64,000 nucleotides of DNA, taken from positions 229 to 64,228 of the forward strand of contig CAYYJS010000013.1 in assembly GCA_964472315.1 (NCBI GenBank). The letters run 5' to 3'. Made by a program: the position numbers and the translations under genes. Below the pieces are notes generated by a model that saw nothing but the letters and a program-made list of their open reading frames with translations, did not search any database and had not been told where the DNA came from. Positions 1-47,528 of this stretch are shown here, in pieces. How positions within the stretch are numbered: the stretch's first letter is position 1; each line of letters opens with the position of its first letter. This DNA is from an uncultured Victivallales bacterium. GTDB lineage: Bacteria; Verrucomicrobiota; Kiritimatiellia; UBA8416.

Positions 1-2
1 TC

Positions 3-290
3 CCCGCCGATGACACCGATTTGGACAACAACCCCGCGCTGGATACCGCGACCAGGGGAAAACTCAAGTGCCAGCGCAAGCGCCTGCGCCTCCTGTTTAC
101 TGATGACCATCTCAAGCAGCTCAAGCGCGTTAAGCTCATCGATGACATACTGGCCTGTACCGAACGTGTCTTGAACCCGGCAGCCCACGGCGGCAATCCT
201 CCTCTCTACGAAAGGGAAGTCGCCGACGCCCTTAGCCTGCTCCAGCAGCTCGATAGCTCGCTCATTTGCGCTGGGAGTAGCACGGCATGA
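3..290 (+). CDS. 3' portion of an unknown protein whose 5' end lies outside the window; its stop overlaps the ATG of the downstream ABC ATPase (ATGA)
   Basis: Open frame runs from the window edge to a stop at 288-290 (…NPAAHGGNPPLYEREVADALSLLQQLDSSLICAGSSTA*). The 4-nt ATGA overlap with the next gene suggests translational coupling. No family recognised. Confidence 0.35.
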   Translation, partial: PADDTDLDNNPALDTATRGKLKCQRKRLRLLFTDDHLKQLKRVKLIDDILACTERVLNPAAHGGNPPLYEREVADALSLLQQLDSSLICAGSSTA

Positions 291-2599
291 TCACTCGCAT
301 TCTCGAGATTCGCGGCGTCGGATCGCTGAAGAACGTGCGTCCCGACAAGGGGCATGAGTGCTCTTTTGCCCGTCATACGGTTGTGTACGCTCCGAACGCG
401 ACGGGGAAGACCACCCTTGCTGCCGTTTTGAAGGCGTATGGCTTCGATGATCCTGTTCTGATCGGTTCACGCACGACACTCTCAGGGGGAGCGACACCTT
501 TTGCCATCATCGAACTCGACGGCAGGGCGCGCCGCTTCCAGAACGGATCTTGGTATGGGCGCCAGGATGCGGAGTATCCATTCGCAGTGTTCGACCATGC
601 ATTCATCGAAGACAACGTCTTCGCCAGCGAGGTTACGCCAGACCATTTGAAGTCGATCCATCGCATTGTCATCGGGACAACCGGCAAGGCGCTCAACGAT
701 ACCCTTGAGCGATGTAAGCAGGCCGAAAAGGAGGTCCGTCGCGACTTTCAGGCACTTCAGAAGGACCTGGGCAACCTTCAAACGACCACAGGGCGGCAAG
801 ACTATCTTGACCTGCCTCGATCACTCACACGCACCGACGCCGAAGCACGCACAAATGAGTACGCGGGACGGTTGAAAGCGTTGAAGGATGTCGCCGCTGT
901 CGCGACTTTGGCGGTGCCCTCGCTGCAACCGCTGCGGCTCGGGGATTTCGCCGCCTTGAGAAGGGTGGCAACCGCCAGCGTGGCGGTTGTGCATGCCGAT
1001 GCAAAAGAGCGGGTGAAACAGCGCATACAGACGGTGCTCAGGGCAGATCGGGAAGCCGAATCCTTCCTCAACATCGGCCATAGGTTGCGCCCTCCTGACG
1101 GTCAGTGCCCATTCTGCGGTCAGAATACGAAGCCGGTCGTGCGTCTTCTCGACGACTATGAGAAGTGCTTCGACAAATCGTTCGCGGAACTGAAGGACAA
1201 TGTCACTGAGCGGGTAAAGAGGTTCGCGGAATGGTCCCCGGCGAAGGACCTGCAGGCATGGATGGCGACGGCAGCGAACGCTGCAACCCTGCGTGAAAAA
1301 TGGGTCGGGCTGATATCAGACCTACCACCGCTGCCGGACGTGGGTGCTTTCATCGAAGAAGCGGCGGCGACGGCGGTTGCTCATCACGCCAAGGCGCGCG
1401 AGGAGTTGGAGAAGAAGACGCTATCGCTGGATGCGAAACCGGATTTGGCTCATCTCGACGATCTGGAGGGTCTGCTTCGGCGTGTCAGGGCAGAGACGGA
1501 ACGATGTGTGCAAGCGTGCGAGCAAATCGGAGCACGGATCGCGGAATTCCGTCAGAAGTTGAAGCAAAGCAATGCTGAAGATACGGAACGTGAGTTGGCT
1601 CGCCGCCGAGCAATCGTTGAGGGATTGAGCCCGCCCGCGGACATCTGGCGAAAGCGATTTCGGGAAGCGGAAGCTCTTCTGACTGCAAGGGAGAAAGAGA
1701 GAGAGTCGGCGGAAAAGGTTCTGGAAGCCTACTGTCGCGAAACCTATGCGGAATTCCAGAACGGAGTAAACCACTTCCTAAGTGGTTTCGATCTCCGGCT
1801 TACTGTAAGCGGCCTTGAGCCCCGCTCAACGAAGCAGAGCAACCAGGTTCTTGCGGATATTTCGTTCGGCGTGGATGGTTGCGCAGTTTCGGCGTCCAAA
1901 CGGCAAAGCAACGATCCGTGCTTCAAGAACACCCTGAGCGAAGGAGAGAAAAGCGCCCTTGCCTTTGCGTTTTTCCTCGCGGACCTGCGACGGAGGGACG
2001 ACCTTTCCAACGCCATTGTCATTCTCGACGATCCTCTGTCGAGTTTCGATGACGGGCGCAGAGAGGAGACAGCCAATATTCTCGCCCGTCTGTCGGAGAA
2101 GTGCCGGCAAGTGATCGTGCTCACGCACAGGACCGATTTTGTCGTCCGGCTATTTGAGCAGCCATCGTTTGACGGCAGGTTTCTGCGGCTTGCCGCAGAC
2201 GCGGCGCAGGGTGTCCGGATCGAACCACTGGACGTTAAGGATCTGCAGCAACAGCCCCATGAGAAGAACGTCCGAGCTCTTGTCAGCTTCGCCGAGACTG
2301 GCGTACCACCCGCCCGCGACAACCTCCCTCGCCTGGTCCGCTGCGTTCTCGAATTCGCGCTGGCGGCCAAGTACCTCGTCCGACTTCATAGGGGCGAGCG
2401 TGACTTGACAGCAATGCACAATCGGCTGCGGGCAGATGGCTTGCTCGGCCAGGAAGTCGATGCGGAACTGACGTATCTCAACAGCCGATCACAAGAGGGT
2501 CTCCATGCCGCAACAAGCCACGACCCAACGCATGCCCTTTCAGACACTGAATACCGGCGACTTGCCAAGCGTACACTCGATCTCCTCGAAAAGATCTGA
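287..2599 (+). CDS. RloC/PrrC-like (AAA_13-type) ABC ATPase with a Rad50-like zinc hook; probable defence ATPase, possibly anticodon-nuclease-like
   Basis: 770 aa. The N-terminus carries a Walker A motif (YAPNATGKTT). The central region is a long coiled coil with CPFCGQ (a CxxC zinc hook). The C-terminal half has an ABC signature-like LSEGEKSALAFAFFLA and a Walker B/D-loop IVILDDPLSSFDD, followed by a ~200 aa extra domain. This architecture matches RloC-type proteins. Confidence 0.6.
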   Translation: MITRILEIRGVGSLKNVRPDKGHECSFARHTVVYAPNATGKTTLAAVLKAYGFDDPVLIGSRTTLSGGATPFAIIELDGRARRFQNGSWYGRQDAEYPFAVFDHAFIEDNVFASEVTPDHLKSIHRIVIGTTGKALNDTLERCKQAEKEVRRDFQALQKDLGNLQTTTGRQDYLDLPRSLTRTDAEARTNEYAGRLKALKDVAAVATLAVPSLQPLRLGDFAALRRVATASVAVVHADAKERVKQRIQTVLRADREAESFLNIGHRLRPPDGQCPFCGQNTKPVVRLLDDYEKCFDKSFAELKDNVTERVKRFAEWSPAKDLQAWMATAANAATLREKWVGLISDLPPLPDVGAFIEEAAATAVAHHAKAREELEKKTLSLDAKPDLAHLDDLEGLLRRVRAETERCVQACEQIGARIAEFRQKLKQSNAEDTERELARRRAIVEGLSPPADIWRKRFREAEALLTAREKERESAEKVLEAYCRETYAEFQNGVNHFLSGFDLRLTVSGLEPRSTKQSNQVLADISFGVDGCAVSASKRQSNDPCFKNTLSEGEKSALAFAFFLADLRRRDDLSNAIVILDDPLSSFDDGRREETANILARLSEKCRQVIVLTHRTDFVVRLFEQPSFDGRFLRLAADAAQGVRIEPLDVKDLQQQPHEKNVRALVSFAETGVPPARDNLPRLVRCVLEFALAAKYLVRLHRGERDLTAMHNRLRADGLLGQEVDAELTYLNSRSQEGLHAATSHDPTHALSDTEYRRLAKRTLDLLEKI

Positions 2600-2662
2600 A
2601 CCATGACACAACAAAATCGCCAGCTAACCGGCCGAATCCGATGCTGAAAGGATGAGAGCCCA

Positions 2663-2854
2663 ATGGACGTCAACAAACTGATGCTCAGCCGGATATTCGA
2701 CAGCACCGAGCGGCTCGATGCACCGCTTTTCCAGCGACCCTACGTGTGGAGCGAGAACCGAAACTGGGACCCGTTGTGGGAAGCGATTGAGTCGCTGGCG
2801 CAGAAACGCGTCGCCGGCAATCTGGGGGTGTCTGGGAGTCACGCGGAGGGTTGA
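2663..2854 (+). pseudogene. Truncated DUF262 (GmrSD N-terminal, ParB-like) fragment
   Basis: The 63-aa ORF contains the DUF262 hallmark LFQRPYVW, paralogous to the N-terminus of the full GmrSD gene at 3236 (LFQRSYSW). It has no DGQQR motif or downstream domains and looks like a remnant. Confidence 0.5.
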
Positions 2855-3040
2855 TGGGAATTCATGTCACAGCTCGGTTGGCCTGGCACAATGACGGGTG
2901 GAACGGGCGGGTTTGCCATGACCCGCCGGGCAACACGTAATGCGTAGGCTGCTACTCATACCCAGGGCTGATGATCGCCGAGCGGCGGGACCTGGCGAAG
3001 GAGACGGCGGCGGCCGGGGTGTCTATGGCGGAACTGGACT

Positions 3041-3089
3041 TCGTGCCGCCCTGCATCCCGCTGGGGTGAATGCAACGCCGGGGCCTGTC
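3041..3089. repeat. 49-bp direct repeat, copy 1 (pairs with 7808-7856; one mismatch)
   Basis: tcgtgccgccctgcatcccgctggggtgaatgcaacgccggggcc[t/c]gtc is present at both positions. The two copies fall in different reading frames, so the repeat is not conserved as coding sequence. Confidence 0.8.
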
Positions 3090-3235
3090 TCTTGCGGCAG
3101 CACGGGCGGCCGTTCTCGCGAAGGGATCTTCCCGGAGGCCGAATCTGTGGTACGGAGGCGATTTGTCGATCGGGGATTACGTGAAGATCCGAGCAGGAAG
3201 AGACTTAGTAGTCGAGAGAGGAACCGAGTAGCGAT

Positions 3236-5878
3236 ATGGACGCGAGAGCAAGAACAGTAAGCGAGATTCTGCACGAAGCGGCGCAGTACATGGTGCCACT
3301 TTTCCAGCGGTCGTACTCCTGGCACAAGGCGCACTGGCAGCGACTGAACGACGACGTGATCGCGCTGGCCGACGACCCTGAGCGCCAGGTTCATTTTCTG
3401 GGACCGCTGGTCTGCACGATCGGTAAGAGCGTGCCCGGATGCCTGCCGGCGTACCAGTTGATCGACGGACAGCAGCGGCTGACGACGCTGACGGTTGCCC
3501 TGGCGGCTATCCGCGACGTGGCACGCGACCGCGGCCTGACTGAACTCGCCGAGGAGATCACCGAGGACTACCTGGTCCACAAACGCAAACAGGACCTTGA
3601 GCGATTCAAAGTGCTGCCCAGGATCGGGGATCGGGACGCGCTGAAGGCGATCATCGAAAATAGCAACCTGGCTCCGTTCGGCCATCTGAGGCTTGTTCAC
3701 GCCTGGCGGTTCTTCCGTCGCCAGTTTTTACACCGCGCGCGGCGGAATCCGCGCGCCGAGCTCCAGAACCTGTTCGACACGATAACGCGGCGGCTGTCGC
3801 TCGTCGTCATTACGATCGACGGGGAGAACCCCTACGAGATCTTCGAGAGCCTGAATGCCACGGGGCTGCCGTTGGCCGAGTCCGATCTCATCCGCAACCA
3901 TGTCTTCATGCAGATTCCCGTTGCCGAGCAGGATGCCTTCGACCGCTCGTACTGGCAGCCGCTGGAGTGGCACTTCATGTCGTGGGGCGATGACCGCCCG
4001 GCGGTGATGACTGACTTCTACCGCGAATACCTGATGCGGGATGGGCGCTATTCGCGTGAGAAGAGCACGTTCGTCGGCTTCAAGCAGCAGCAGAAAGACC
4101 GCGGCCTCAACGCCAGGCAGCAGGCGGAGGAACTCCAACACTACGCCCCGCTGGCAGTGCAGATTCGCAGGCCGGAGACGTGTGCGTCTCCCGTGATCAG
4201 TCGTCGCCTCTCCGAGGTTTCGATGATGGACATCGGGACAGCCCAGGCTTTCGTGATGCACCTACTGGACCGCCATAGCCGCAGTCAACTGAGCGAGCAG
4301 GATCTTTCGACGTGCCTGTGCGATCTGGTGTCGTTCGTCCTGCGGCGCACTGTCTACGGTGACTCCACCCGTGCATACGGCCGGTGGTTCATTGAGGCCA
4401 TCGCCGTGGCCGGCGACACTCCTGTTTCGAACCTGCGACGCTACTGGATGGAACGGGGCTGGCCCGATGATACGGCCTTCACGCATGCCTTGGGAGAGTT
4501 CCAGATCTATAAACGCGAACCCCGCAAGGCCCGTATGGTGCTGGAGGCATTGGAGCTTGCATCCCAGCATAAGGAACAGGTGCCGCTGGAGTCCCTCACC
4601 ATCGAACACGTAATGCCGCAAACCGTCACGGATGACGAGGCGGGAAAGGCGTGGAAGACGGCGTTGGGCGAAAGCTGGGATGATCTCCACGAACGGTACT
4701 TGCATGCACTTGGCAACCTGACGCTGACGGGCTACAACCCAGAGCTTGGCAAGATGGCTTTCCGGAACAAGCAGGAGGTTTACCGCGATAGTCATGTCGG
4801 ATTGAACCAGCGCTTCCGCGACCTGACCACATGGGATTCGGAGTCCATCCGGAATCGGACTACCGCCCTGGCCGCCCAGTTGTGCCGGATCTGGCCGCGA
4901 CCGGATTCTGGCATTCCCTATTCCGCGAGCCAGGATGATTTGACGGGGCAGCAGGCATCTCCAGCTCGCAAGCGGAATCTCGAATACTGGGGGGCACTCC
5001 TGAAACAATGGCCCGAACGGCTGGGCACGCCACCCGCGCCCTCGAATTCAGCCGAACTGGTCATCCCGCTGGATAAGGAGAAGGGCGTTTCCGTCAGCCT
5101 GTGGCAATTCCGACGGGAGCGGAAGGTGGTTGTCTATGTCCGTTTCGAGGGTCGGCTCGGGCGGCGCATCTACGGGCGGCTGCACGAGATCGCGAAGGAG
5201 ATTGACGACAGAATCGAGGGCGAGCTTGTCTGGGATTGGCCCGTCAGGAGCAGTTTCGCGGTCTGCGAGGACGACGTGGACTTTTCGGACCGGAACGACT
5301 GGGAAATTCAGCACGCCTGGTTCATCGAGGAGCTGTCCGATATTATCGAAGCGCTCACCTCCGAAATCGAACAGGTGGCCGAGGCTGAAGAAGGCGATGG
5401 CGGGGCAGATATTCCGGATGAAGCGACCGCGGAACGGCAGCGACTGCGATACCAGTTCTGGACCGGGCTTCTCGGCTATGCGGCGACGAAGACAGACCTT
5501 CACGCCACCCGAAAACCGGGCAAGTTCAACTGGATCGGCGGAGGCATTGGCCGTAGGGGGTTCGGCCTCAACTACAGTGTCCGTGAGTACGAATCGCAGG
5601 TTGAACTCTACATTGACCTGGGCAAGGGGTGCGAGGGGGAGAATGAGCGTGCGTTTGGCGCGCTTAAGAAGGAGCAGACGGTCGCGGAAGCGGTCTTTGG
5701 CGGTCCGTTGGACTGGCAGGATCTGCGAGACAGCCGTGCCTGCCGAATCTGCAAAGTGATCCCGGGCGGTTGGAGATCGGCGCCGGAAACGTGGAGTGAG
5801 ACGCATGCGACCATGGTCGATGCGATGATTCGCCTGGATCGGGCGCTTCGGCCCTATGTGCAGGGCATGCGCCTGTAA
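3236..5878 (+). CDS. GmrSD-family type IV (modification-dependent) restriction endonuclease: DUF262 + DUF1524 with a C-terminal extension
   Basis: 880 aa. The N-terminus has LFQRSYSW and LIDGQQRLTTL (DUF262, ParB/Srx fold). The mid-to-C-terminal region has LTIEHVMPQ and a His-Me finger-like region (DUF1524). The C-terminal ~300 aa resemble a DUF4268-like tail. Confidence 0.75.
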   Translation: MDARARTVSEILHEAAQYMVPLFQRSYSWHKAHWQRLNDDVIALADDPERQVHFLGPLVCTIGKSVPGCLPAYQLIDGQQRLTTLTVALAAIRDVARDRGLTELAEEITEDYLVHKRKQDLERFKVLPRIGDRDALKAIIENSNLAPFGHLRLVHAWRFFRRQFLHRARRNPRAELQNLFDTITRRLSLVVITIDGENPYEIFESLNATGLPLAESDLIRNHVFMQIPVAEQDAFDRSYWQPLEWHFMSWGDDRPAVMTDFYREYLMRDGRYSREKSTFVGFKQQQKDRGLNARQQAEELQHYAPLAVQIRRPETCASPVISRRLSEVSMMDIGTAQAFVMHLLDRHSRSQLSEQDLSTCLCDLVSFVLRRTVYGDSTRAYGRWFIEAIAVAGDTPVSNLRRYWMERGWPDDTAFTHALGEFQIYKREPRKARMVLEALELASQHKEQVPLESLTIEHVMPQTVTDDEAGKAWKTALGESWDDLHERYLHALGNLTLTGYNPELGKMAFRNKQEVYRDSHVGLNQRFRDLTTWDSESIRNRTTALAAQLCRIWPRPDSGIPYSASQDDLTGQQASPARKRNLEYWGALLKQWPERLGTPPAPSNSAELVIPLDKEKGVSVSLWQFRRERKVVVYVRFEGRLGRRIYGRLHEIAKEIDDRIEGELVWDWPVRSSFAVCEDDVDFSDRNDWEIQHAWFIEELSDIIEALTSEIEQVAEAEEGDGGADIPDEATAERQRLRYQFWTGLLGYAATKTDLHATRKPGKFNWIGGGIGRRGFGLNYSVREYESQVELYIDLGKGCEGENERAFGALKKEQTVAEAVFGGPLDWQDLRDSRACRICKVIPGGWRSAPETWSETHATMVDAMIRLDRALRPYVQGMRL

Positions 5879-6123
5879 TGTTCTCAGCCGCCATCTGCAA
5901 GAAGGGAAGTGCGCCGCCGGGGCATGTCCCTTGTCTGGCCCCAACGTCGTCGTGGAAAGAAGGGACAGGCCACGTGAGCGGGCGCGGGGCGTGCCGGGGG
6001 ATCCACGGGCGTCAAGGGCCATCAGGGCATGGTTTCGCCTATGGGTTGCGAACGGTGGTGATGCAAGGCGTTGATGAGCAGGATATTGCGGGGGCATCGG
6101 GGGGCATCGGGGTCAGCAGAATC

Positions 6124-6163
6124 GAGTATTGATGAAGTGGTTGACGCTGTCCGGCGTCATGGG
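6124..6163. repeat. 40-bp direct repeat, copy 1 (pairs with 19839-19878; 2 mismatches), with an internal 6-bp inverted repeat tgacgc-N6-gcgtca
   Basis: gagtattgat[g/a]aagtggtt[g/a]acgctgtccggcgtcatggg occurs at both sites. Weaker similarity extends about 25 bp upstream (…catcgg[g/a]gtca…). Confidence 0.75.
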
Positions 6164-6489
6164 GGTTCCACTCCACATGGACTCTGAGGATATTGATTGT
6201 CTATGGGGACAGTAAGCGGTCATGGAGGCGGCCAGGCCCCCGCAATCGAGGCCTGGATCCAGAAACACGGATGGCACGATACACTGCGAAGCCGCCTGAC
6301 CAAGGTCGGCTTTACGCCGCCTGAGTGTCAAAGGTTTCGCAACGCGCATCACGCGCCGGATGATGAATCAACCCACTTGCGTGAGAAGACGGAATGAGCG
6401 AAGCGAAGCACACGGTGGCACAGCATCTTTGACGCCGAACTTCCCGAGCGCAGGACAACGAAGGCCGTGCTGTCGAGACAATTGCACTC

Positions 6490-7836
6490 ATGGCCTACGG
6501 GTCGATCGTTTCCGTGCCCGGGCGGGAGATCGCCGACGCCGTCGACAGAGTCGTTGATAGGGATACGCCCTTCCCGGTCGAGTACGCCCGAAGCAGCAAA
6601 CGTCGAACCTGGGCTCCAACAGTCGTCGAGGTACCCGAGGGCTACGGCTCCCCAGTCAAAGCCAAGGTGTTTGTCCTCAAGGAGCACGTGACGGAGCAGC
6701 AGGCCCTCGACATGCTCTACAGGCGGGAGATCAACATGGTGGGCGATGCGACCGTGACTTACGACGATGCCCGGCAGAGGAAGAAACGGGACGGTGTCGT
6801 AATTGACAGCCGCAAGGGGTTGGGGGTTGGCAACGTCCTGTACACGACACTCCGGGCCAATATGCCGGAGATCCTCGACAACAGAATTTCCATCGAAGAC
6901 AAGGGACGCCTGTTGGCCGACAAAGCTCGCGCGAGCCTGACTGAAGAGGAATACCGCAGACGGCGGGACGGCATTCAGTATCTTGCAGATAACATCGACC
7001 AAGGAATCATTACTCCTCTGACCACCCCGTACTGTCAGGCAATCCTGTCTGCCATCCCCGGGTCTGGCAATCTGCGGTCAGCGAGGCTGAGGCTGGCGTC
7101 TGAGAGGCTGGGAGTCCGTATTGTCGCCGGCGTCGACGGCTGCAAGGCTGGCTGGTTCGCAGTCTGGGGCGACGGCGCCGAGAACTGGACGTTCGGCGTG
7201 TTTTCAGACTTCGCATCCCTTTGGCAGGAGCTCGCCTACGCCGACCTCATCGTTGTCGATATCCCGATCGGGCTGCCCTCCGATAGCCCCCGAACTTGCG
7301 ATCTGGTGGCGAGGAAGCTCCTGAGAAGGCCTCGGCACTCCAGCGTCTTCCCGGTGCCATGCAGGCAGGCCGTACACGCCTCTTCCGAGGACGAAGCCAA
7401 GGCCGCGAACAAGCGGATCATGGGCAAGAGCATTAGCAGGCAGTGCTTGGGAATCTGCAGCAAGATCGCCGAGGTCGATCGTTTGTTGCTGTCGGACACG
7501 GAGGCACGACAAACCATCAGGGAGGGGCATCCTGAGGTCTCCTTTTATGCCTTTGCAGGTAGTAGACCCATGGAGCACAAGAAATCGATTGCCGAGGGCG
7601 TTGGGGAAAGATTGGCAGTACTGCGTGAGAGATGGTCGAGCATTGACGACCTGTTCAAGAAGGCATCGAAGGAGTGTCGCCGCGGGCATATGGAAAATGA
7701 CGACGTCTTGGACGCGGCGGCCATGTACCTGACGGCGGCGGCGGAAGAGTCCAGGGCGATCCCAACAAAGCGGGAGAGGGATTCGGAGGGGCTGGCGATG
7801 GAAATGGTCGTGCCGCCCTGCATCCCGCTGGGGTGA
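6490..7836 (+). CDS. DUF429 (RNase H-like fold) domain protein with a ~200-aa uncharacterised N-terminal domain
   Basis: 448 aa. The C-terminal half has VAGVDGCKAGWFAVW…LIVVDIPIGLP…CDLVARKLL, typical of DUF429. I do not recognise the N-terminal half. The last codons overlap 49-bp repeat copy 2. Confidence 0.55.
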   Translation: MAYGSIVSVPGREIADAVDRVVDRDTPFPVEYARSSKRRTWAPTVVEVPEGYGSPVKAKVFVLKEHVTEQQALDMLYRREINMVGDATVTYDDARQRKKRDGVVIDSRKGLGVGNVLYTTLRANMPEILDNRISIEDKGRLLADKARASLTEEEYRRRRDGIQYLADNIDQGIITPLTTPYCQAILSAIPGSGNLRSARLRLASERLGVRIVAGVDGCKAGWFAVWGDGAENWTFGVFSDFASLWQELAYADLIVVDIPIGLPSDSPRTCDLVARKLLRRPRHSSVFPVPCRQAVHASSEDEAKAANKRIMGKSISRQCLGICSKIAEVDRLLLSDTEARQTIREGHPEVSFYAFAGSRPMEHKKSIAEGVGERLAVLRERWSSIDDLFKKASKECRRGHMENDDVLDAAAMYLTAAAEESRAIPTKRERDSEGLAMEMVVPPCIPLG

Positions 7837-7913: not shown

Positions 7914-7967
7914 ACCAACATCAATGACAGAAGCGGGATCACTCCCGCGAAACGGGTGTGGGTGCGT

Positions 7968-9104
7968 ATGATCAAGTCTCTCAATCTTCCAGCTATCACT
8001 GACACGTTGCCACGTGTCGGCCTGAGTGCGGCTGATCTCGCCAGAGAACTCGGCGTCAGCCGGGAAGCAGTCTCGAAGTGGCTCAACGGGAAGTCCACGC
8101 CAAAGCCGGACAAACTGCTCCGGTTAGGCATGCTGCTCGGACTTTCGTTCGACGAATTGACGATACCGGAAGTCAAATCGGCCGTCCCCATTGTGTCATT
8201 CCGGCGTAAGGGTGGGCGCATCACCCGAGACCGTCATCTCGACAAGGCCCGAGATACCGGGGAACTCTTGAGACGTCTGGTGCGGCACCTACCGGAACAG
8301 GGCTTGGCGGCGCCTCCCGTCCTTAGAGATCCTCGGTGCGACTACGACTATGTCCAGAAAGCGGCGGCTGAAACACGACACGAAATGGGCATAAAAGACG
8401 CTGACATGATCGAATACGCCCAACTTATTCAGAAATTCGGTCGGCTCCATGCCATCATTGTCCCTGTACTATGGGGGGAGCGACAGTACCATGGCAACGC
8501 ACTCAACATTCACCTTCCTGATTGCGGGATCACATGGATCTACCTCAACCTGGACAGCAATGCGATCGACTTCAAATTCTGGATGGCGCACGAACTCGGC
8601 CACGCACTTGCCCCGAAGCTAAGCGGGGAAGAGGGCGAGGATTTCGCCGACATGTTTGCGCAGGCACTCCTGTACCCGGAGGCCGTTGCCGCGGAACTAC
8701 GCACTCAACTGGCACGCCGAACGAATGTCGGCCAGCGCATCAATGCTGTCAAGAGCACCGCAAGAGAGCGCCGTATTTCACCAGTCACAATCCGGTACGC
8801 GATCAAGGCCTACGAGGCAGCCCGAGGCCTGGCCCCCCTGGAGTTGGGAGCCGAGGCGTCTTTCATGGGTGCCGCGAGGAACGTCTCCAAGGAGTACGAA
8901 ACGGTAACCGAAACGCTGTTCACGGAGAATCCGCCATCGCCAGCAGACTATGCGGCCATTGGGCGGCGAACCTTCGATAGCCAGTTTTTTGAATCACTGG
9001 CTGCCTATTGCCGCAACGAGGACGGAGCGGAGCATTTCATCCACAGCGTTCTTGACCTGCCGTTAGCCGACGCAAAAGCCCTTGCGGCGGAGCTCGCAAG
9101 ATGA
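7968..9104 (+). CDS. XRE-family HTH fused to an ImmA/IrrE-family (COG2856) zinc metallopeptidase
   Basis: N-terminal HTH (LSAADLARELGVSREAVSKWLNGKSTP). C-terminal HEXXH motif (FWMAHELGHAL). The first ATG in frame is at 7968 (MIKSLNL); the ORF could also start at GTG 7956. Confidence 0.7.
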   Translation: MIKSLNLPAITDTLPRVGLSAADLARELGVSREAVSKWLNGKSTPKPDKLLRLGMLLGLSFDELTIPEVKSAVPIVSFRRKGGRITRDRHLDKARDTGELLRRLVRHLPEQGLAAPPVLRDPRCDYDYVQKAAAETRHEMGIKDADMIEYAQLIQKFGRLHAIIVPVLWGERQYHGNALNIHLPDCGITWIYLNLDSNAIDFKFWMAHELGHALAPKLSGEEGEDFADMFAQALLYPEAVAAELRTQLARRTNVGQRINAVKSTARERRISPVTIRYAIKAYEAARGLAPLELGAEASFMGAARNVSKEYETVTETLFTENPPSPADYAAIGRRTFDSQFFESLAAYCRNEDGAEHFIHSVLDLPLADAKALAAELAR

Positions 9105-9685
9105 GCGGTGGGCCGAAGGTCATCTTGCTCGACAGCAACGCCTATTTCCGCCTCGCTCAGTCCATTCGGCCTTTGCTCAAACCGCGGTATGGCCCACCGC
9201 CGTCGTATTCGCTTCTTGTCCTGAAGGAGCTCGATCAGGAATACCTTCGCAGTGCCCGCCTCCGAAGCAGATTCAACTGGTTCAGCGGCAGAGAATATGT
9301 CAGCGATCGCGAGAAGAACCGCTATACGGTGAGTGGTGCGGGCGCACGACTGGTCGATATCGCGTTCTCCTATCTGGCGAGGCAGGCCGATAGCGAGGGC
9401 CTGAATCTTGCTCGCGAGGACATCCAGGCGCTTGCTGTTGGCCACGCGCGTGGATTTCCTGTCGTCACGGATGACAGGGGCATGCAGAGGCTGGCCGGAA
9501 TATTCGGCATCGAGTGCTGGTCGACGTTGGCGCTCTTGAAGCACATGGTCGATCATGGGCGCATCGATTTCAACATCGTCCGCCAAGTAGTCGAGTATTG
9601 GCACGCAGAGCAGGACCTGCCTTGGCCTTTGAACGAACTTCGCCGGCGTTACAAGGAGTTCTTCTCGGAGGACTGTCCCATATAG
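9101..9685 (+). CDS. PIN-like domain protein (DUF4411-like), the usual partner of ImmA/IrrE-HTH proteins
   Basis: 194 aa. VILLDSNAYFRL at the N-terminus and PVVTDD resemble PIN acidic motifs. The ATGA overlap with the upstream peptidase gene suggests translational coupling. The ImmA-DUF4411 gene pairing is a known conserved neighbourhood. Confidence 0.5.
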   Translation: MSGGPKVILLDSNAYFRLAQSIRPLLKPRYGPPPSYSLLVLKELDQEYLRSARLRSRFNWFSGREYVSDREKNRYTVSGAGARLVDIAFSYLARQADSEGLNLAREDIQALAVGHARGFPVVTDDRGMQRLAGIFGIECWSTLALLKHMVDHGRIDFNIVRQVVEYWHAEQDLPWPLNELRRRYKEFFSEDCPI

Positions 9686-9720
9686 GCCCGCTCGATGCCG
9701 CTACACGGATACCTCACACC

Positions 9721-10524
9721 ATGAACGCACTTGAACGGGCATCGATTGCGAAAGCGGGGCGTGACCACGGGTGGGAGTGCGTGCTGCGCAACGGTGAGCA
9801 TGGCGTCATCCTGGGGTCATCCCGGCATGACGGCGAAGCCACGATCGAGGCGAGCACCCCGGCGGGAGCCTGGTCATGCCTGTTCAACAACGGCCTTGCC
9901 ATGGCGGAGCTGCGCCGTTCGTTCCCGGACGCCGCCCGCGCTGACGGCACATTCGTCCTCGGCGCCATGGGAGCGCTCACCGTCCTTCTCCGGCGTGCGG
10001 CGGAGTTGCACATGTCCCTGCCCAACGCGGCGGCCCGGCGATACGCGAAGTGCGTCAAAGAAGGGGAGCATGTCGAAGGAACGAACGATCTGGCATTCTC
10101 GCAGGTCGGCGATGTGGCCGAAGCCGTACGCCGAAAGACGCTGGTTTTCGACTGGCTGGTACAGAACGAAGACCGAATTCTTGGCGAGCGAGGTGGCAAC
10201 GTCAATGTCCTCTGGGTTGCCGGCGAGAACTCGGTGTTCGTGATCGATCACAATCTCGCATTCGACACGGCTTTCAATGTCGCTTCATGGAAGGCGCAGC
10301 ACGTGTTCCGCAATGATCTCGATGCATGGGATGCCGGGTTCGCCCTTGCATTGGAGCCGTTGCTGAAGGATACTCAGTTGCGGCTGGACGAGTACTGGGG
10401 AGAGTTGCCGGATGAATGGGTTGATGTGGCTTCGCTGCTCCCTGAGTTCTCGCTGGCAAGGCTGCACGCTGTGCTGGCACGATTTGCTGGAGCGAATAGC
10501 CTGTTTGGCATGGTGACAAAATGA
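9721..10524 (+). CDS. HipA-like (HipA_C / PI3K-PI4K-like) kinase-fold protein
   Basis: 267 aa. FDWLVQNEDRILGERGGNVNVLW parallels the HipA catalytic loop (VLIGNTDDHLKNF). VFVIDHNLAFD parallels the HipA activation/DFG-like motif. I see no N-terminal HipA domains. Confidence 0.4.
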   Translation: MNALERASIAKAGRDHGWECVLRNGEHGVILGSSRHDGEATIEASTPAGAWSCLFNNGLAMAELRRSFPDAARADGTFVLGAMGALTVLLRRAAELHMSLPNAAARRYAKCVKEGEHVEGTNDLAFSQVGDVAEAVRRKTLVFDWLVQNEDRILGERGGNVNVLWVAGENSVFVIDHNLAFDTAFNVASWKAQHVFRNDLDAWDAGFALALEPLLKDTQLRLDEYWGELPDEWVDVASLLPEFSLARLHAVLARFAGANSLFGMVTK

Positions 10525-11366
10525 AGAGCAACTACGCCTGCAATTTTGCGGTTGTGAGATTTCTGCCATACCCCGAGACGGATGAATTCGTCAATATCGG
10601 CATTGTCATGGCGTGCCCGCAAACGGGCATCTTCGACTTCAAGATCGACACTCGGCGTCGGGAGCGCATCACGGGATTCTTTCCTGAACTCGATGTTGAT
10701 ACACTCTTGGATGGTCGGAAGGCTTTCGTGCGCGAAGTGGCGCGTGTGAAGGCTGCATTCGACGGGCAAGCGACGCCGGATCAGCGAAGCTTCAACTTCA
10801 GCCAGCGGGAATGCGTCGATATATTCCGGAAACTGGTGAAGCCGCGTGAAAGCGTCTTTCGGTTCAGCGCCATCGGAACGGTGCTCACCATGGACCCGAA
10901 GCAGAAGCTGCAGGAGCTGTTCGCATACTACGTGGAGCGCCAATTCGCGCAGCGTGAGGAGTACCAGGAGACAGTCATGACTCGCCGGCTTGCGACTGTG
11001 TTCAAGGCGGAACACTTGATCGACCTGTACCACGAGCAGCGTTTCGGCGATGAACTATACCATGTGACGCTGCCGTTCGTTCACGAGGTGGACGACGCTG
11101 CGGTCAAGGCGATCAAACCCCTCGACCTCGACAAACATGATTCAACCCGGATCATTGAATATGGCGACAAATGGCAACGCCGTATCGAGCGCCTCCGTGG
11201 CATGGGGGACTTCCCCAAGCGGATTCTGTTTGTCGTGCGCCAGCCCGGAAGTGGCCGCAAGCGAGAGGCAGCGGAAAGCGTGCGTCGTGATCTTGAAGCC
11301 CTTCACGCCGAGACGCTCAACGAGCGCGATAAGGCTGAGGTGGTCGCATTCGCCCGGGCCGGATAG
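10521..11366 (+). CDS. DUF3037-like protein
   Basis: 281 aa. The N-terminus CNFAVVRFLPYPETDEFVNIGIVM matches my recollection of the DUF3037 consensus. Its ATGA overlaps the upstream kinase-like gene. Confidence 0.4.
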   Translation: MKSNYACNFAVVRFLPYPETDEFVNIGIVMACPQTGIFDFKIDTRRRERITGFFPELDVDTLLDGRKAFVREVARVKAAFDGQATPDQRSFNFSQRECVDIFRKLVKPRESVFRFSAIGTVLTMDPKQKLQELFAYYVERQFAQREEYQETVMTRRLATVFKAEHLIDLYHEQRFGDELYHVTLPFVHEVDDAAVKAIKPLDLDKHDSTRIIEYGDKWQRRIERLRGMGDFPKRILFVVRQPGSGRKREAAESVRRDLEALHAETLNERDKAEVVAFARAG

Positions 11367-11581: not shown

Positions 11582-14500
11582 ATGAGTGATACAGCCACAG
11601 ATCCCATTTCAGACTGCGTCCGGCTGGATCTGGAGACCAACCAGTCTGGGGGGATTCTCAAAATCGGTGCCGTCCGTGGCAATCGGACTTTCCTGCGTAC
11701 GGGCCGCTTTGACCAGAAGGCTGCGCTGGCTGAGCTGGATGGTCTGTGTCGGGGAGCATCTTGCGTGGTCGGCCATAATGTTGTGCTTCATGACTTGGAA
11801 GTCCTCAGGGAGCACAGCGCTTCGCTTTCGCTTCTGAGGCTGCCGGTAATCGATACGCTGTTCCTGTCGCCGATCTGCTTCCCGGAGAACCCATATCATC
11901 ACCTGGTCAAGGACTACAAACTAGTCTCGGACTCTGTGAACGATCCCGTCGCGGACGCACGGCTTTCCGGCGTCTTGCTCGCGGATGAGGTGCAGTCGCT
12001 GCGCGGAAGGGCCGAAGCGGCTCCCGATGTGTTCCGTTGCCTGCAGTTTCTGCTGTGCGCAGAAGGCGGCACCGACAACCTTCTGTCTGTGGGTATGCAG
12101 TTGGTGTTTGGCGCAGCCGGTGGAGGCGACTCGGTCACGACACAGCAAGGGCGCCCGTTGCTCACGTCAGTCCTAGGGGATCTGGCCTGTCGAACCGGCG
12201 CGGCATACCTGGCGGAAACCGACTTTGGCTCCGCGCAATCGCGTTGGGCACTGGCGTATGTGCTGTCGTGGCTGCGCGTCGCCGGCGCCGATTCCGTACT
12301 GCCGCCCTGGGTACGTCTGCACAACCCGCTGGTGAGCCCGATCCTTTCGCGACTGCGCGATGTCCCGTGTGACAGTCCCGAGTGCACGTACTGCCGTGCG
12401 ACTCACGATCCCGAGGCCCAACTGTCACGTTTTTTCGGATTCGACAGCTTCCGCCCCACTCCGCCGGATGCAAACGGCCAGAGTCTTCAGCGCGGCATTG
12501 TCTTGGCGGGCATGCGAAATGAGTCCGTGCTGGCCATCATGCCCACCGGCGGAGGGAAATCACTCTGCTTCCAGCTTCCCGCCCTGGTGCGCAACTTACG
12601 CAGAGGGCAGCTCACCATCGTCGTGTCTCCCCTGCAGGCGCTCATGAAGGATCAGGTCGATGGCCTTGTGCGCCGGACCCACATGCACAACGCAGCGGCG
12701 CTTTACGGGTTGCTGACTTCACCCGAACGAGGGGAGGTCCTGCGCGGCGTGCGAACCGGGAGCATTGCGCTCCTTTACGTTTCGCCAGAACAACTGCGCG
12801 GGAAGTCGTTCAGGAATGCCGTGCTTCAGCGAGAGATCGGCTGCTGGGTTCTGGATGAGGCGCACTGTCTGTCCAAATGGGGACACGACTTTCGTCCTGA
12901 CTACCTGTACGTAGGCCGGTTCATCCGCGAATTGGCGAAAGAGCAGGCAGGCGCCCTGCCGGCAATCGCCTGCTTCACGGCAACTGCGAAGCGGGATGTC
13001 ATCGACGAAATCGTCGAGTTCTTCCGCCGCGAGACCGGCACGGAACTGATTCGCTATGAAGGCGGCGTCGAGCGCGACAACCTGCATTTCGAGGTACAGA
13101 CTGTGGGTGCGCATGCGAAGTTGCCGCGGATGCATGATCTTCTGAGTGCCCGACTGCGGCCCGGCGGCCCTGGAAGCGCAGTCGTATTCCGTGCTACGCG
13201 AAAGGCTGCGGAGGAAACGGCGGAATTCCTCGTTACTAAGGGCTGGTCCGCGGCATGTTTTCATGCCGGACTGCTGGCGACCGACAAGAAGCGCATCCAG
13301 AATGACTTCCTGGCTGGCGAAATCCAGGTCATCTGTGCGACCAACGCTTTCGGGATGGGTATCGACAAGGATGACGTCAGGCTCGTCATCCACGGCGACA
13401 CGCCGGGATCGCTGGAGAACTACCTGCAGGAAGCCGGACGGGCCGGGCGAGACCGGAATCCCGCCGACTGCGTGCTCCTATACGACGAAGAGGATTGCGA
13501 GCAACAATTTCGCATGGGTGCTCACTCCGAGCTGAGCCGCCGCGATATCGCCCAGATCCTTCGCGGTCTCCGCAAGGCCGCCCGGTCGCGGAAAACCGAT
13601 GAAGTCGTCATCACAACCGGTGAGTTGCTGCGCGATGAAGACGTCGATACTGAATTTGGTCCCCAAGACAATTCAGCGGACACCAAGGTGCGGGCCGCCG
13701 TCTCATGGCTGGAGCGTGCAGGATTTGTCGAACGGAACGAGAACCGGACCAACGTCGTGCAGGCCCGACTGCTCGTCAAGAGTATCGACGAGGCCCGGGC
13801 GCAGTTGGCGAGGCTCAACTTGTCCGAACGGGAGGGCGGCCTGTGGTTAGCGATCATACGCGAGATGATGAACGCCTCCGAGATGGATACGCTATCCGTC
13901 GACGAGATTGCCCTGTTGCCCGAGTTCCAGTCCTACTTGGAGGAAGCCCGTTCCGGTGCGCCGGAGCGGCTGGTACGGGAAGGGCGCAGCCAGGAGTATC
14001 TGAGCGCGAAGGTGCTGAAAGTCCTCGACGCGATGATGGGTGTGGGCGTGCTCAAGAAGGATACGCTGCTGACAGCGTACGTGCGGTATAAGGTCGCGGA
14101 TCATTCTGGGATCAGACTGGACCGCGTGCTCGGCGTGGATCGCGAGTTCCTCAAGCTGCTGTCCGAGGAAGAGCCAGATCCGGAGGGGTGGCTCTCGCTC
14201 AACCTCCGTCTCGTGAACGACGAACTGTTGTCGCGAGGGGTTGACTGCTCGCCGGAAATGCTGCGACAGCTCCTGCGGAGCCTGAGCGAGGATGGTCGAG
14301 GGTTCGCGGGCCAAACGGGCAGCATTGACTGCCGCTACGTGGGGCGTGACGCCTACCGCGTCAGGGTTCGAAGGGAATGGCGACAAGCTGAGGCGCTGGC
14401 CGAAGTGAGGAGGAGAGTGGCAACCAAGATCCTGGAAGCCCTCTTGGACACAGTCCCGCCGAATACACCGCCTAAGGGCGACCTCTTGGTTGAGTTCGCG

Positions 14501-16804
14501 TTCGAGACGCTCCGGTCGGCGTTGGAGAGTGACCTGACCCTTCGCTCCGATATTCGTGACATGCAGGCGGCCATCGAGCGCGGGTTGATGTTTCTACATG
14601 AGCAGAGCGTCATCATCCTTCAAAAGGGGCTGGCGATATTCCGCTCTGCCATGACCGTCCGCGTTCTGCCCGAAGGTGACCGCCAACGGTATACGGCAGA
14701 ACACTACGACGCGCTGCAGCACCACTACCGTGAGCGTGTGTTTCAGGTGCATGTGATGAACGAGTACGCCCGTTACGGACTGCAGAAGATCCGCGCAGCT
14801 CTCGAGTTGGTCGTCGCATACTTCACGATGGACAAGGAGTCGTTCATCCGACGGTTCTTCAGTGACAGCGGGGAACTGCTGGAGAGAGCCACGACGGCGC
14901 GGTCCTACCGCGCGATCGTAGACAGCCTGGGAAACCGCGATCAGATCCGCATTGTGACCCAGCCGACTCAGAAAAACATCCTGATCCTGGCCGGACCAGG
15001 CTCAGGGAAGACCCGAACCGTCGTGCACCGGTGTGCGTACCTGTTGCGCGTTAAGCGCGTACGTCCCCGGGCCGTCTTGGTCTGCTGCTTCAACCACAAG
15101 GCCGTCCTGGAGTTGCGCCGACGCCTGGCCGCTTTGGTTGGCAAGGACGCCATCGGGGTTACGATTCAGACCTACCACGGCCTGGCCCTTCGCATCCTCG
15201 GCCTGTCCTGCCGCGGACTGGAGGACAGGAACGGGACCACGCCCGATTTCGACCAGCTCATATCCGACGCTGTACGCGTCCTGCGTGGAGAGTCCGGAGT
15301 GCCGGGTGTCGAGCCGGACGACGTTCGTGACCGCCTGTTGGCCGGCTTTGAGCACATTCTCGTGGACGAGTACCAGGACATCGATGAGCCCCAGTACGAG
15401 ATGATCAGCGCCATAGCCGGCCGTACCCTCAAGGACGGGGAGCGCAAACTGTCCATTCTGGCTGTCGGCGACGACGACCAGAGCATCTACGGTTTTCGGG
15501 GCGCCAACGTGGAATTCATCCGTCGCTTCAAGACGGACTACGAGGCGGATGTTGCCTTCCTGATCGAGAACTACCGTTCCACGCGCCATATCATTGAGGC
15601 GGCCAACCGCTTGATCGGGCGCAATCATGACCGCATGAAGGTGGACAAGGAGATCCGAATCGACCAGGGACGTGGCTTACTCCCGCCGGGCGGGGTGTTC
15701 GGCCAGAAGGACGCCCTTACGCGCGGCCGCGTCACGCTCGTCGAGGTCGGGGACGCTTCGGTGCAGGCGTCAGCCGTCGTGCGCGAGATCAAGCGGCTGC
15801 GCGCCTTGGGCGCAACCCGCTGGGAGGACATCGCCGTCCTCTCGCGCACACGGCGAGACCTTGCCCTGGTGCGCGCCGCAGCGGAAGCCGATGGCATTCC
15901 CGTTTCGTGGCCGCTGGACCGCGGCAAGATACCTCCGCTGAGCCGCATCCGTGAGGTATGGAACGTCCTGTCCGAACTGGCCTCTATTCGCGGCGAATCC
16001 ACCACGGCTTCGGACCTGCTTGTTCGGTTTGGGCTTTCGGACGACTCACCGCCAGCAAATCCCTGGCGGGTGCTCATCCAGGACTGCCTGCATGCGTGGG
16101 CCGACGAGACACTGGACGAAAGACTTCCTGTCGCCACCGCTCTCGAGGGGCTTTACGAGGCGCTGGCCCAGCGACGGCGCGACGAACAGTTCGGCTGCGG
16201 CGTAGTCCTGAACACAGTCCATGCGGCCAAAGGCACGGAATACGAGCATGTCCTGCTCTGCGGCGATTGGTCGGGCGCGCGAGGGGCGGACATTGAGGAG
16301 GAACGCCGTGTTCTTTACGTCGGCATGACCCGTGCCCGCCACACCTTAGCTGTTTTCAACAGGATGGACCGCCGCAATCCCTTTGCCGACGAACTCACCG
16401 GGCCGTGTTTCACCTACCGCCGCGAGTCTGCCGGCCCAGCCGGACGCGACCACGATGCATCGGATTATGTCCTGCTCGGCATGGAAGATATCTTCCTGGA
16501 CTTCGCCGGCCAGCAGCCCGCCGGCCACCCCGTACACACTGCGCTGGCGGGGCTTCAGCCCGGCGACAAACTGGCAGTGTCCCGTAACGGCGCGCGGCCC
16601 GCGTTGCTGAACGCGGACGGGCAGATGCTTGCTCGGTTCTCTGCCAAGGCCGCTGATACGTGGAAGGATCGTCTCGACACGATTCGTGACGTTCAAGTCA
16701 TCTGCAACGTTATTCGACAGCGCACCGACTGCAAAGAGAGCGAATACCAAGACCGGCTCAAAGCGGACAGATGGGAGATCCCGATCTGCGAGATCCGGAT
16801 GTAG
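11582..16804 (+). CDS. Tri-domain protein: N-terminal DnaQ-like DEDDh 3'-5' exonuclease, RecQ-family helicase and UvrD/PcrA-family helicase
   Basis: 1740 aa.
- Exonuclease: RLDLETNQ…VVGHNVVLHDLEVL matches exonuclease motifs I and III.
- RecQ: MPTGGGKSLCFQLPAL and LDEAHCLSKWGHDFRPDY are RecQ signatures.
- UvrD: ILILAGPGSGKTRTVVHR (Walker A), VDEYQDIDEPQYEMI (motif II) and YVGMTRAR (motif VI).
The last ~150 aa are unassigned. Confidence 0.7.
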   Translation: MSDTATDPISDCVRLDLETNQSGGILKIGAVRGNRTFLRTGRFDQKAALAELDGLCRGASCVVGHNVVLHDLEVLREHSASLSLLRLPVIDTLFLSPICFPENPYHHLVKDYKLVSDSVNDPVADARLSGVLLADEVQSLRGRAEAAPDVFRCLQFLLCAEGGTDNLLSVGMQLVFGAAGGGDSVTTQQGRPLLTSVLGDLACRTGAAYLAETDFGSAQSRWALAYVLSWLRVAGADSVLPPWVRLHNPLVSPILSRLRDVPCDSPECTYCRATHDPEAQLSRFFGFDSFRPTPPDANGQSLQRGIVLAGMRNESVLAIMPTGGGKSLCFQLPALVRNLRRGQLTIVVSPLQALMKDQVDGLVRRTHMHNAAALYGLLTSPERGEVLRGVRTGSIALLYVSPEQLRGKSFRNAVLQREIGCWVLDEAHCLSKWGHDFRPDYLYVGRFIRELAKEQAGALPAIACFTATAKRDVIDEIVEFFRRETGTELIRYEGGVERDNLHFEVQTVGAHAKLPRMHDLLSARLRPGGPGSAVVFRATRKAAEETAEFLVTKGWSAACFHAGLLATDKKRIQNDFLAGEIQVICATNAFGMGIDKDDVRLVIHGDTPGSLENYLQEAGRAGRDRNPADCVLLYDEEDCEQQFRMGAHSELSRRDIAQILRGLRKAARSRKTDEVVITTGELLRDEDVDTEFGPQDNSADTKVRAAVSWLERAGFVERNENRTNVVQARLLVKSIDEARAQLARLNLSEREGGLWLAIIREMMNASEMDTLSVDEIALLPEFQSYLEEARSGAPERLVREGRSQEYLSAKVLKVLDAMMGVGVLKKDTLLTAYVRYKVADHSGIRLDRVLGVDREFLKLLSEEEPDPEGWLSLNLRLVNDELLSRGVDCSPEMLRQLLRSLSEDGRGFAGQTGSIDCRYVGRDAYRVRVRREWRQAEALAEVRRRVATKILEALLDTVPPNTPPKGDLLVEFAFETLRSALESDLTLRSDIRDMQAAIERGLMFLHEQSVIILQKGLAIFRSAMTVRVLPEGDRQRYTAEHYDALQHHYRERVFQVHVMNEYARYGLQKIRAALELVVAYFTMDKESFIRRFFSDSGELLERATTARSYRAIVDSLGNRDQIRIVTQPTQKNILILAGPGSGKTRTVVHRCAYLLRVKRVRPRAVLVCCFNHKAVLELRRRLAALVGKDAIGVTIQTYHGLALRILGLSCRGLEDRNGTTPDFDQLISDAVRVLRGESGVPGVEPDDVRDRLLAGFEHILVDEYQDIDEPQYEMISAIAGRTLKDGERKLSILAVGDDDQSIYGFRGANVEFIRRFKTDYEADVAFLIENYRSTRHIIEAANRLIGRNHDRMKVDKEIRIDQGRGLLPPGGVFGQKDALTRGRVTLVEVGDASVQASAVVREIKRLRALGATRWEDIAVLSRTRRDLALVRAAAEADGIPVSWPLDRGKIPPLSRIREVWNVLSELASIRGESTTASDLLVRFGLSDDSPPANPWRVLIQDCLHAWADETLDERLPVATALEGLYEALAQRRRDEQFGCGVVLNTVHAAKGTEYEHVLLCGDWSGARGADIEEERRVLYVGMTRARHTLAVFNRMDRRNPFADELTGPCFTYRRESAGPAGRDHDASDYVLLGMEDIFLDFAGQQPAGHPVHTALAGLQPGDKLAVSRNGARPALLNADGQMLARFSAKAADTWKDRLDTIRDVQVICNVIRQRTDCKESEYQDRLKADRWEIPICEIRM

Positions 16805-47454: not shown

Positions 47455-47528
47455 TGGTTGCCCGACTAGGACTCGAACCTAGACTCTAGCCTCCAAAGGG
47501 CCGTGTGCTGCCATTACACCATCGGGCA
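47455..47528 (-). tRNA. tRNA-Gln (anticodon TTG), CCA encoded
   Basis: Minus-strand sequence TGCCCGA-TG-GTGTAATGGCAGCACA-CGGCC-CTTTGGA-GGCTA-GAGT-CTAGG-TTCGAGT-CCTAG-TCGGGCA-A-CCA. Acceptor stem 7 bp, T-arm with TTCGAGT loop, anticodon loop CU-UUG-GA. It sits between ispE and prs, a conserved position for tRNA-Gln. Confidence 0.7.

Follow-up and report, generated by a model that had tools for sequence, protein, structure and literature searches.

A predicted, divergent RloC-family anticodon nuclease gene next to an ABC ATPase of a separate family in an uncultured Victivallales bacterium

The first 2599 nt of a 64 000 nt stretch of DNA from an uncultured Victivallales bacterium (contig CAYYJS010000013.1 of assembly GCA_964472315.1; the whole stretch is referred to here as the window) contain an open reading frame (ORF) for a 770-aa protein, preceded by a gene that is cut off by the window edge and whose end overlaps the start of the ORF. 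An earlier, sequence-only reading had taken this arrangement for an RloC- or PrrC-like ATP-binding cassette (ABC) ATPase that probably forms part of a system of two or more components. The locus raises two questions: to which family the 770-aa protein belongs, and whether it acts together with its upstream neighbour. With regard to the first, we consider the ORF at 287–2599 to be probably a divergent member of the RloC family, predicted to work as a self-contained, single-protein anticodon nuclease; with regard to the second, functional dependence on the upstream ATPase is not indicated. Nucleases of the RloC type have been little studied; they are known as a last line of defence, in which a cell cuts its own tRNA once immunity at the level of DNA has failed. 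The window gene would represent a new divergent member, and clade, of this known family, in which the CxxC motif and the nuclease triad are retained and two other conserved His/Cys positions are lost.

Architecture and conservation of the 770-aa protein

The motifs that had been quoted for the ORF (YAPNATGKT, CPFCG, LSEGEK and Walker B) are all present as quoted within 287–2599. The gene and its parts are located as follows:

287–2599, + strand: predicted RloC-family gene; ATG start, 770 aa; ABC head, CxxC-bearing helical stalk and HEPN-like C-terminal domain
386–412, + strand: Walker A, YAPNATGKT, aa 34–42 (motif and alignment)
638–1786, + strand: helical insert, aa 118–500 (AlphaFold2 secondary structure; predicted local distance difference test score, pLDDT, mostly >90)
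1022–1024 and 1649–1651, + strand: aa 246 and aa 455, Arg at both in the window protein
1106–1120, + strand: CPFCG, aa 274–278, putative zinc-binding CxxC ('zinc hook') (alignment and model)
1934–1951, + strand: ABC signature LSEGEK, aa 550–555 (motif and alignment)
2015–2053, + strand: Walker B and D-loop IVILDDPLSSFDD, aa 577–589 (motif and alignment)
2126–2128, + strand: H-loop histidine H614 (99 % conserved)
2234–2596, + strand: C-terminal helical domain, aa ~650–770, putative HEPN-type anticodon nuclease (domain model and Foldseek)
2339–2353, + strand: R685-C-V-L-E689, Arg-X3-Glu of the PrrC/RloC catalytic triad (alignment; motif definition from PMC2610378)
2504–2506, + strand: H740, putative catalytic His, 50 residues past E689, at the end of helix 722–740 (alignment and models)

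The best match of the protein to any hidden Markov model (HMM) was to PDC-S06 of PADLOC (E=1.1e-58), which covered the N-terminal half as well as the C-terminal region, and the comparison with Pfam AAA_13 that had been proposed for it gave E=2.4e-29. A word-indexed search recovered only seven relatives, six of them 50–57 % identical and one 26 % identical, and the best match among GTDB representative genomes was 29 % identical to the 770-aa protein; with HMMER, 1.84 billion cluster representatives were searched exhaustively, which gave 8657 proteins at E<=1e-3, of which 1614 reached E<=1e-30. Given the AAA_13 and PDC-S06 matches and these 1614 relatives, the ORF is a genuine gene rather than a product of chance. 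Of the 150 best HMMER relatives, most are 750–790 aa long and aligned from residue 1 to residue ~767, and the family as a whole is large and uniform in length (~765 aa). Conservation was read from a diverse family alignment of 153 sequences, with a median identity of 23 % to the window protein, and from a subset of 86 sequences (A3). The window protein belongs to a clade of about eight known sequences, which are 50–57 % identical to it and ~23 % identical to the remaining family.

RloC has been defined as a distant homologue of PrrC that possesses the ABC motifs of PrrC, an insert of coiled coil with a CxxC loop breaking it and, near the C-terminus, Arg-X3-Glu-X36-52-His with a Ser that is frequently found just before the His (PMC2610378). 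In the 804-aa RloC of Geobacillus the triad consists of R692, E696 and H737, mutation of any of which abolished anticodon nuclease activity, and the hook cysteine is C291 (PMC2610378). Each of the three defining elements is found in the window protein. Its ABC motifs (Walker A, signature, Walker B/D-loop and switch His) are 98–100 % conserved in the family: N37, G40 and K41 of Walker A in 98 % of the 153 sequences (and invariant in the 86-sequence subset), S551 and G553 of the signature in 99 % and 98 %, D581 and D582 of the Walker B/D-loop region in 100 % and D588 in 99 %, and R591, just past this motif, in 100 %. The helical insert (aa 118–500) is broken by CPFC at 274–277, the first Cys (C274) being present in 152 and the second (C277) in all of the 153 members. 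The C-terminal domain carries R685-X3-E689-X50-H740, of which R685 is found in 152/153 sequences, and E689 and H740 in 153/153. From these counts we infer strong selection on the CxxC of the insert and on the C-terminal Arg-X3-Glu...His. The overall plan likewise resembles that of the characterized RloCs (COG4694; GkaRloC of Geobacillus kaustophilus and AbaRloC of Acinetobacter baylyi), with a similar size (770 versus 804 aa) and an ABC head split by a CxxC insert, and the CxxC at 274 of 770 parallels C291 of 804 in GkaRloC. The 90 % cluster-mates of two close family representatives, P0109 and P0060 (the latter with 42 % identity to the window protein), bear the IMG product name 'wobble nucleotide-excising tRNase', which we take to be the product name of COG4694/RloC. 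The AAA_13 match, the ABC motifs, the conserved CxxC, the triad and the IMG name of these cluster-mates agree with each other, and uphold the RloC-type layout that had been proposed.

The full-length AlphaFold2 model, made from the 86-sequence alignment, has a pLDDT of 90 and a predicted template-modelling score (pTM) of 0.69. It contains an ABC head of two lobes (aa 1–117 and 505–647) and a stalk of antiparallel long helices (118–168 with 449–500), with approximately nine shorter helices in between. The 'long coiled coil' described previously is therefore right as to a long antiparallel helix pair, and wrong as to a single coiled coil, as the shorter helices also belong to the insert. CPFC lies in a loop between helices 254–267 and 282–315, where the confidence of the model is lowest (pLDDT 60–76). 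The C-terminal domain, which had been put at ~200 aa, needs to be reduced to ~120 residues (aa ~650–770), with 505–647 forming the C-lobe of the ABC head; in a separate model of aa 645–770 (pLDDT 92, pTM 0.83) it is predicted to be a bundle of four or five helices.

In Foldseek searches against the PDB, the full-length model matched heads with coiled coil from SMC, Rad50, cohesin, condensin, LmuB and JetC (E from 1e-9 to 1e-5). For the C-terminal domain the best structural matches were of the HEPN RNase fold, although these were not significant (best E=0.25): 1wwp and 2q00 came out on top (probability 0.96 and 0.91, TM-score ~0.53), and several lower matches (1ylm; HepT 6m6w, 6m6u and 7bxo; the toxins 8yuf and 8xdj; Csx1 8y7g) were also HEPN proteins. 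The structures 1wwp, 2q00 and 1ylm have been assigned as HEPN, a domain in which an E-x3-[K/R] motif is frequent and helix 3 ends with the catalytic His (PMC3710099). The residue four positions after E689 is Arg in 129/153 sequences, and this E689-x3-R693 consensus, together with the position of H740 at the end of the modelled helix 722–740, appears to match the HEPN features. A sequence search gave no solved structure of PrrC or RloC, and a structural paper on either was also not found.

If the protein behaves by analogy with the RloCs of Geobacillus and Acinetobacter, its stalk/CxxC and ATPase switch would keep it inactive. Damaged DNA or DNA ends during phage attack, or a failure of restriction, would then elicit DNA-dependent ATP hydrolysis, which would release the C-terminal, metal-independent RNase; the freed RNase would cut tRNA anticodon loops, resulting in translation arrest and abortive infection. 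For the studied enzymes, silencing through the stalk/CxxC and the ATPase switch has been described, as has activation by DNA-dependent ATP hydrolysis that responds to DNA ends and breaks; GkaRloC excises the wobble nucleotide, and the Acinetobacter RloC acts on tRNA-Glu and on tRNA-Gln (PMC3458546, PMC3874168).

A number of observations weigh against the RloC assignment. The comparison with RloC is an indirect one, made by published motifs, architecture and IMG names. The isolated C-terminal domain had no meaningful match in Pfam or PADLOC, the PADLOC PrrC model matched only aa 534–619 (the signature/Walker B part; E=6.7e-7), and PADLOC includes the family as no more than an untested candidate, the activity of the window clade being a prediction. 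The residue before H740 is Leu (GLH), whereas the family mostly has F-H-H, so that neither the optional Ser of the RloC signature nor His is present here. Further differences from RloC are the low identity of the clade to the bulk of the family and an E-to-H spacing of 50, near the top of the published range. Moreover, 127/153 relatives have His and Cys where the window protein has residues 246 and 455, and the eight proteins of the window clade have Arg at both; because of these Arg residues, the zinc site of the clade may differ from that of the family. In typical members His246, Cys455, C274 and C277 would offer four potential zinc ligands in one chain, possibly forming an intramolecular site and not a hook, and in the window clade this four-ligand site may have been changed or lost. 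A comparison of the clade with typical members could tell an intermolecular hook from an intramolecular four-ligand zinc site.

The main residual alternative is that the 770-aa protein is an ABC-gated HEPN RNase of the RloC fold that acts on something else, i.e. mRNA, rRNA or another tRNA site. HEPN RNases have many substrates (PMC3710099), and targets vary even between the studied RloCs, as illustrated by tRNA-Glu and tRNA-Gln in Acinetobacter; in addition, the clade is distant from most of its relatives and has GLH at H740 where the family has F-H-H. Set against this are the triad and its spacing, which are as in both characterized anticodon nucleases (PMC2610378), and the IMG/COG annotation of close relatives, which leads to RloC, whilst the sequence gives no pointer to another substrate. 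We regard a different target as rather unlikely, and an RloC-type anticodon nuclease as the better description of the protein.

The upstream gene and the question of a partnership

The gene that precedes the RloC-like gene is, as had been noticed before, truncated by the window edge and ends in an ATGA that spans the start of the ATPase gene. Its features in the window are as follows:

3–290, + strand: 3' end of the upstream gene (its final 95 codons), encoding the helical C-terminal domain of a ~555-aa ABC-ATPase family
162–188, + strand: ERVLNPAAH, Rx6H (HEPN-type) motif of the upstream protein (conservation in 70 family sequences)
273–277, + strand: GGGAG, Shine–Dalgarno-like, 9 nt 5' of the ATG at 287 (sequence inspection; presumed function)
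287–290, + strand: ATGA, overlap of the upstream ORF stop and the ATPase start (sequence inspection)

The upstream ORF is read in a different frame from the ATPase ORF and ends at 290, so the ATGA at 287–290 holds both its stop codon and the ATPase start. A scan of positions 1–3400 for promoters and terminators gave nothing above shuffled expectation. As the ATGA overlap joins the two genes and no promoter- or terminator-like site is seen at their junction, the 770-aa gene is probably co-transcribed with the upstream ATPase gene.

Extension of the contig upstream had been suggested as a way to identify the supposed partner. An exact-protein look-up yielded a 3.3-kb Logan contig (L001) that is identical to the window and adds 203 nt upstream, extending the upstream ORF to 163 codons; the gain in sequence was limited to these 203 nt, yet the family of the neighbour, a ~555-aa ABC ATPase, could be identified. 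We found 51 homologues of the upstream ORF, all unannotated, with C-termini 43–67 % identical to the window/L001 copy, and the longer ones open with a signature-like LNEAKLTQLALSVRFA, Walker B LLVLDDLLVSLD and the H-loop ILTHE. The intact gene, seen at 80 metagenome loci (L083–L162), has ~555 codons (554–605), with an N-terminal Walker A of the form G-x-NG-x-GKS and no long insert. The family matches SMC_N, AAA_15 and AAA_23, and PADLOC ATPase models match its N-terminal part only; no Pfam or PADLOC model covers its full length. Its C-terminal domain of ~200 aa carries R60-x3-E64 (R60 in 98 %, E64 in 92 %) and an invariant R-V-L-N-P-x-x-H, corresponding to ERVLNPAAH in the window, of which R, V, L, N, P and H occur without exception in 70 sequences of the family. 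The window copy has this RVLNPxxH-type domain, with S and Q at the R60 and E64 positions (by hand alignment), and its ABC head would fall beyond the contig edge. The upstream neighbour is an ATPase with a HEPN-like tail, of a family distinct from the RloC-like one beyond the ABC fold: hhalign of the two C-terminal domains gave a probability of 7.9 %, with R-x3-E in register, yet no evidence of homology.

At most intact loci a gene for a ~1250-aa Eco57I/TaqI_C N6-adenine methyltransferase, resembling type IIG, PglX and DrmMI enzymes, stands just 5' of the upstream-family gene, with the ORFs overlapping or abutting. At the two long loci examined (L148:102–8453 and L094:72–8444) a ~1000-aa HKD(PLD)+Snf2 helicase, which is DrmD-like (PADLOC C3a139, E=2e-128), precedes the methyltransferase, giving a three-gene operon. 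What follows the ATPase is variable: RhuM (4), DUF3800 (4), Schlafen/AlbA-Fic (3–4), DarT, DUF1016, a MORC-like ATPase, SIR2-pAgo, GNAT or housekeeping genes. At nine further loci (L085, L097, L098, L118, L123, L129, L130, L137 and L146) the next, unrelated gene overlaps the ATPase gene by the same 4 nt (a −3 overlap of the ATGA type). This suggests that the slot 3' of the ATPase gene is a recurrent insertion or coupling site, in which the RloC-like gene of the window is one more cargo.

The sequence-only reading had made the two genes parts of one system. An obligate heteromer, with the upstream ATPase and the 770-aa protein as sensor plus effector, would be in keeping with the likely co-transcription and possible translational coupling, and with the likeness of the two proteins, each an ABC ATPase whose helical C-terminal domain contains R-x3-E and His motifs. 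The distribution of the two families speaks otherwise. No RloC-like gene was found at any of the 80 upstream-family loci (tblastn, E<=1e-3), and among the 77 loci of RloC relatives (L001–L077) the upstream family is present only in L001, the window's own contig; the neighbours of RloC-family genes are otherwise varied or absent. The slot holds unrelated cargo, and because nine loci with unrelated genes share the −3 overlap, the ATGA is a property of the site and no sign of partnership. Furthermore, the window copy of the ATPase gene may be a mere 3' remnant. We consider such a two-component system very unlikely, and the self-contained RloC-like nuclease remains the preferred reading.

3'-terminal remnants of the upstream-family gene (130–340 codons) recur in long contigs, some of them beside IS21 or GmrSD (L078:~5990–6747, L080:6001–6573, L081:6001–6489, L088, L099, L107, L122, L127 and L142).

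The RloC-like genes themselves occur in different settings. Close homologues were seen in three contexts: after a gene for a 1672-aa helicase/MTES_1575 protein, directly after a type I hsdR-hsdM...hsdS set, and alone beside a PIN/FitA pair. The immediate neighbours of 52 broader relatives included HsdR (11), Abi_C (7), ArdC-N (4), Methylase_S (3) and N6_Mtase (2), and about one-quarter of these 52 abut type I restriction–modification (R-M) genes. This is in line with the literature, in which rloC is occasionally linked to type I/III R-M loci and ArdC, and a location near restriction genes was found to be rare, in 8/72 cases (PMC2610378); the earlier statement that RloC is 'usually' found in a restriction neighbourhood was thus too strong.

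A recurrent array was also observed (L044–L050, L058, L036 and L042, all genome loci), consisting of a ~430-aa gene, a ~249-aa gene that overlaps the AAA_13 start, the RloC-like gene and a ~1050-aa gene that begins from its stop codon. The ~249-aa gene is most likely the Abi_C match and the ~1050-aa gene the HsdR match, and in this array the RloC-like gene appears to lie inside a type I R-M locus that also encodes an Abi_C protein.

As for the role of the upstream family, it is apparently undescribed, and its place as third gene after an HKD-Snf2 helicase-nuclease and an N6-methyltransferase suggests that it could be a PrrC-like guardian. Tentatively, and with more doubt than confidence, we propose that an ABC ATPase and a HEPN-like C-terminal domain (R-x3-E and RVLNPxxH) are joined in it to make an RNase 'guardian' of an R-M-like system that is not of type I, and that its 3' site is a docking slot, often ATGA-coupled, for defence cargo. 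If this were true, two different ATPase-gated RNases would stand in tandem behind one DNA-targeting module in the window. The more useful by-product of this analysis is what the neighbour is: an ABC ATPase ending in a HEPN-like tail, regularly found behind a helicase-nuclease/methyltransferase pair, and a marker of an insertion hot spot for defence genes; neither this nor the divergent RloC clade alters current understanding, and both are testable leads.

Comparison with known systems

PrrC (EcoPrrC of E. coli) shares with the window protein an N-terminal ABC ATPase domain and a C-terminal Arg-X3-Glu...His nuclease, and its role is that of a back-up to DNA restriction. In contrast to the window protein, PrrC has ~400 aa, with neither stalk nor CxxC and with a triad spacing of X31, and it is always located inside a type Ic hsd locus, which keeps it silent. 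Membership in PrrC was rejected on the basis of the length of 770 aa with a 380-aa insert, the restriction of the PrrC model match to the signature/Walker B part and the lack of a match for the C-terminal domain. Pfam and PADLOC scans of the main ORFs for ~17 kb downstream gave no hsd, Mre11/SbcD or LmuA/LmuC gene, and the gene immediately upstream encodes an ABC ATPase and not hsdS or hsdM; a PrrC-type hsdMSR setting was likewise rejected.

That the protein is instead a repair protein of the SMC/Rad50/RecN type, or a DNA sensor resembling LmuB, in either case lacking its own nuclease domain, is highly improbable and effectively refuted by the conservation of the C-terminal domain, for although the heads of SMC, Rad50, LmuB and JetC are its closest solved structures and SMC_N, RecF, Rad50 and LmuB models match it weakly, these matches are confined to the ABC motifs and lie far under curated cut-offs (17–23 bits versus 700–1000 for Rad50), the extra domain with its invariant R, E and H has no counterpart in SMC, Rad50 or RecN (PMC2610378), the partner genes of such proteins were not detected in the scanned ORFs, and the gene lies in a defence island.

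With Rad50/SbcC, SMC, LmuB and JetC the window protein has in common the head fold and an antiparallel helical stalk, and its CxxC recalls the Rad50 zinc hook. Unlike it, these proteins lack a C-terminal nuclease domain and use separate nuclease partners; the stalk in the window protein is short, and its CxxC region is a multi-helix module and no simple hairpin. The full-length relatives of the window protein all carry the extra C-terminal domain, unlike SMC and RecN proteins, so the best full-length matches are not of that kind. As candidate identities, Rad50/SbcC/SMC/RecN were rejected with NCBIfam Rad50/RecF scores of 17–30 bits against cut-offs of 172–1000, the conserved extra domain and the lack of partner genes, and Lamassu LmuB was rejected with a partial HMM match (E=1.2e-14) far weaker than that to PDC-S06. 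The latter, the best HMM match, is a single-gene phage defence candidate from 'guilt by embedding', but as such a computational label without a mechanism.

Surroundings in the window

Downstream of the RloC-like gene, the complete GmrSD gene and the DUF262 fragment that had been reported for this region are both present by Pfam:

2663–2854, + strand: N-terminal remnant of GmrSD (DUF262), 63 aa (Pfam GmrSD_N, E=6e-6, below the gathering score)
3236–5878, + strand: complete GmrSD type IV restriction gene, GmrSD_N+GmrSD_C+DUF4268 (Pfam and PADLOC); a neighbour, outside the RloC unit

The 63-codon fragment is 54 % identical to residues 1–52 of the GmrSD at L080, which stands beside an upstream-family remnant; the rest of the gene has been deleted in the window. 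The C-terminal DUF4268 of the complete GmrSD scores separately in PADLOC as PDC-S11.

The G+C content is 60.5 % in the first ~17 kb of the window and 58 % in the RloC-like gene, compared with 65.3 % in the rest of the window (17000–64000). The first ~17 kb form a defence island, and their lower G+C content is consistent with horizontal acquisition. The only tRNA gene in the window, at 47455, is far from the RloC-like gene.

Further genes of the first ~17 kb encode a DUF429 protein with an unannotated N-terminal extension of ~210 aa (6490–7836), a helix-turn-helix + ImmA/IrrE (Peptidase_M78) regulator that resembles PADLOC RmrA (7956–9104), a translationally overlapping pair of a HipA_2 kinase and a DUF3037 protein (9514–11366), and a 1740-aa protein that joins a DEAD/Helicase_C module to a UvrD-type helicase module (11582–16804).

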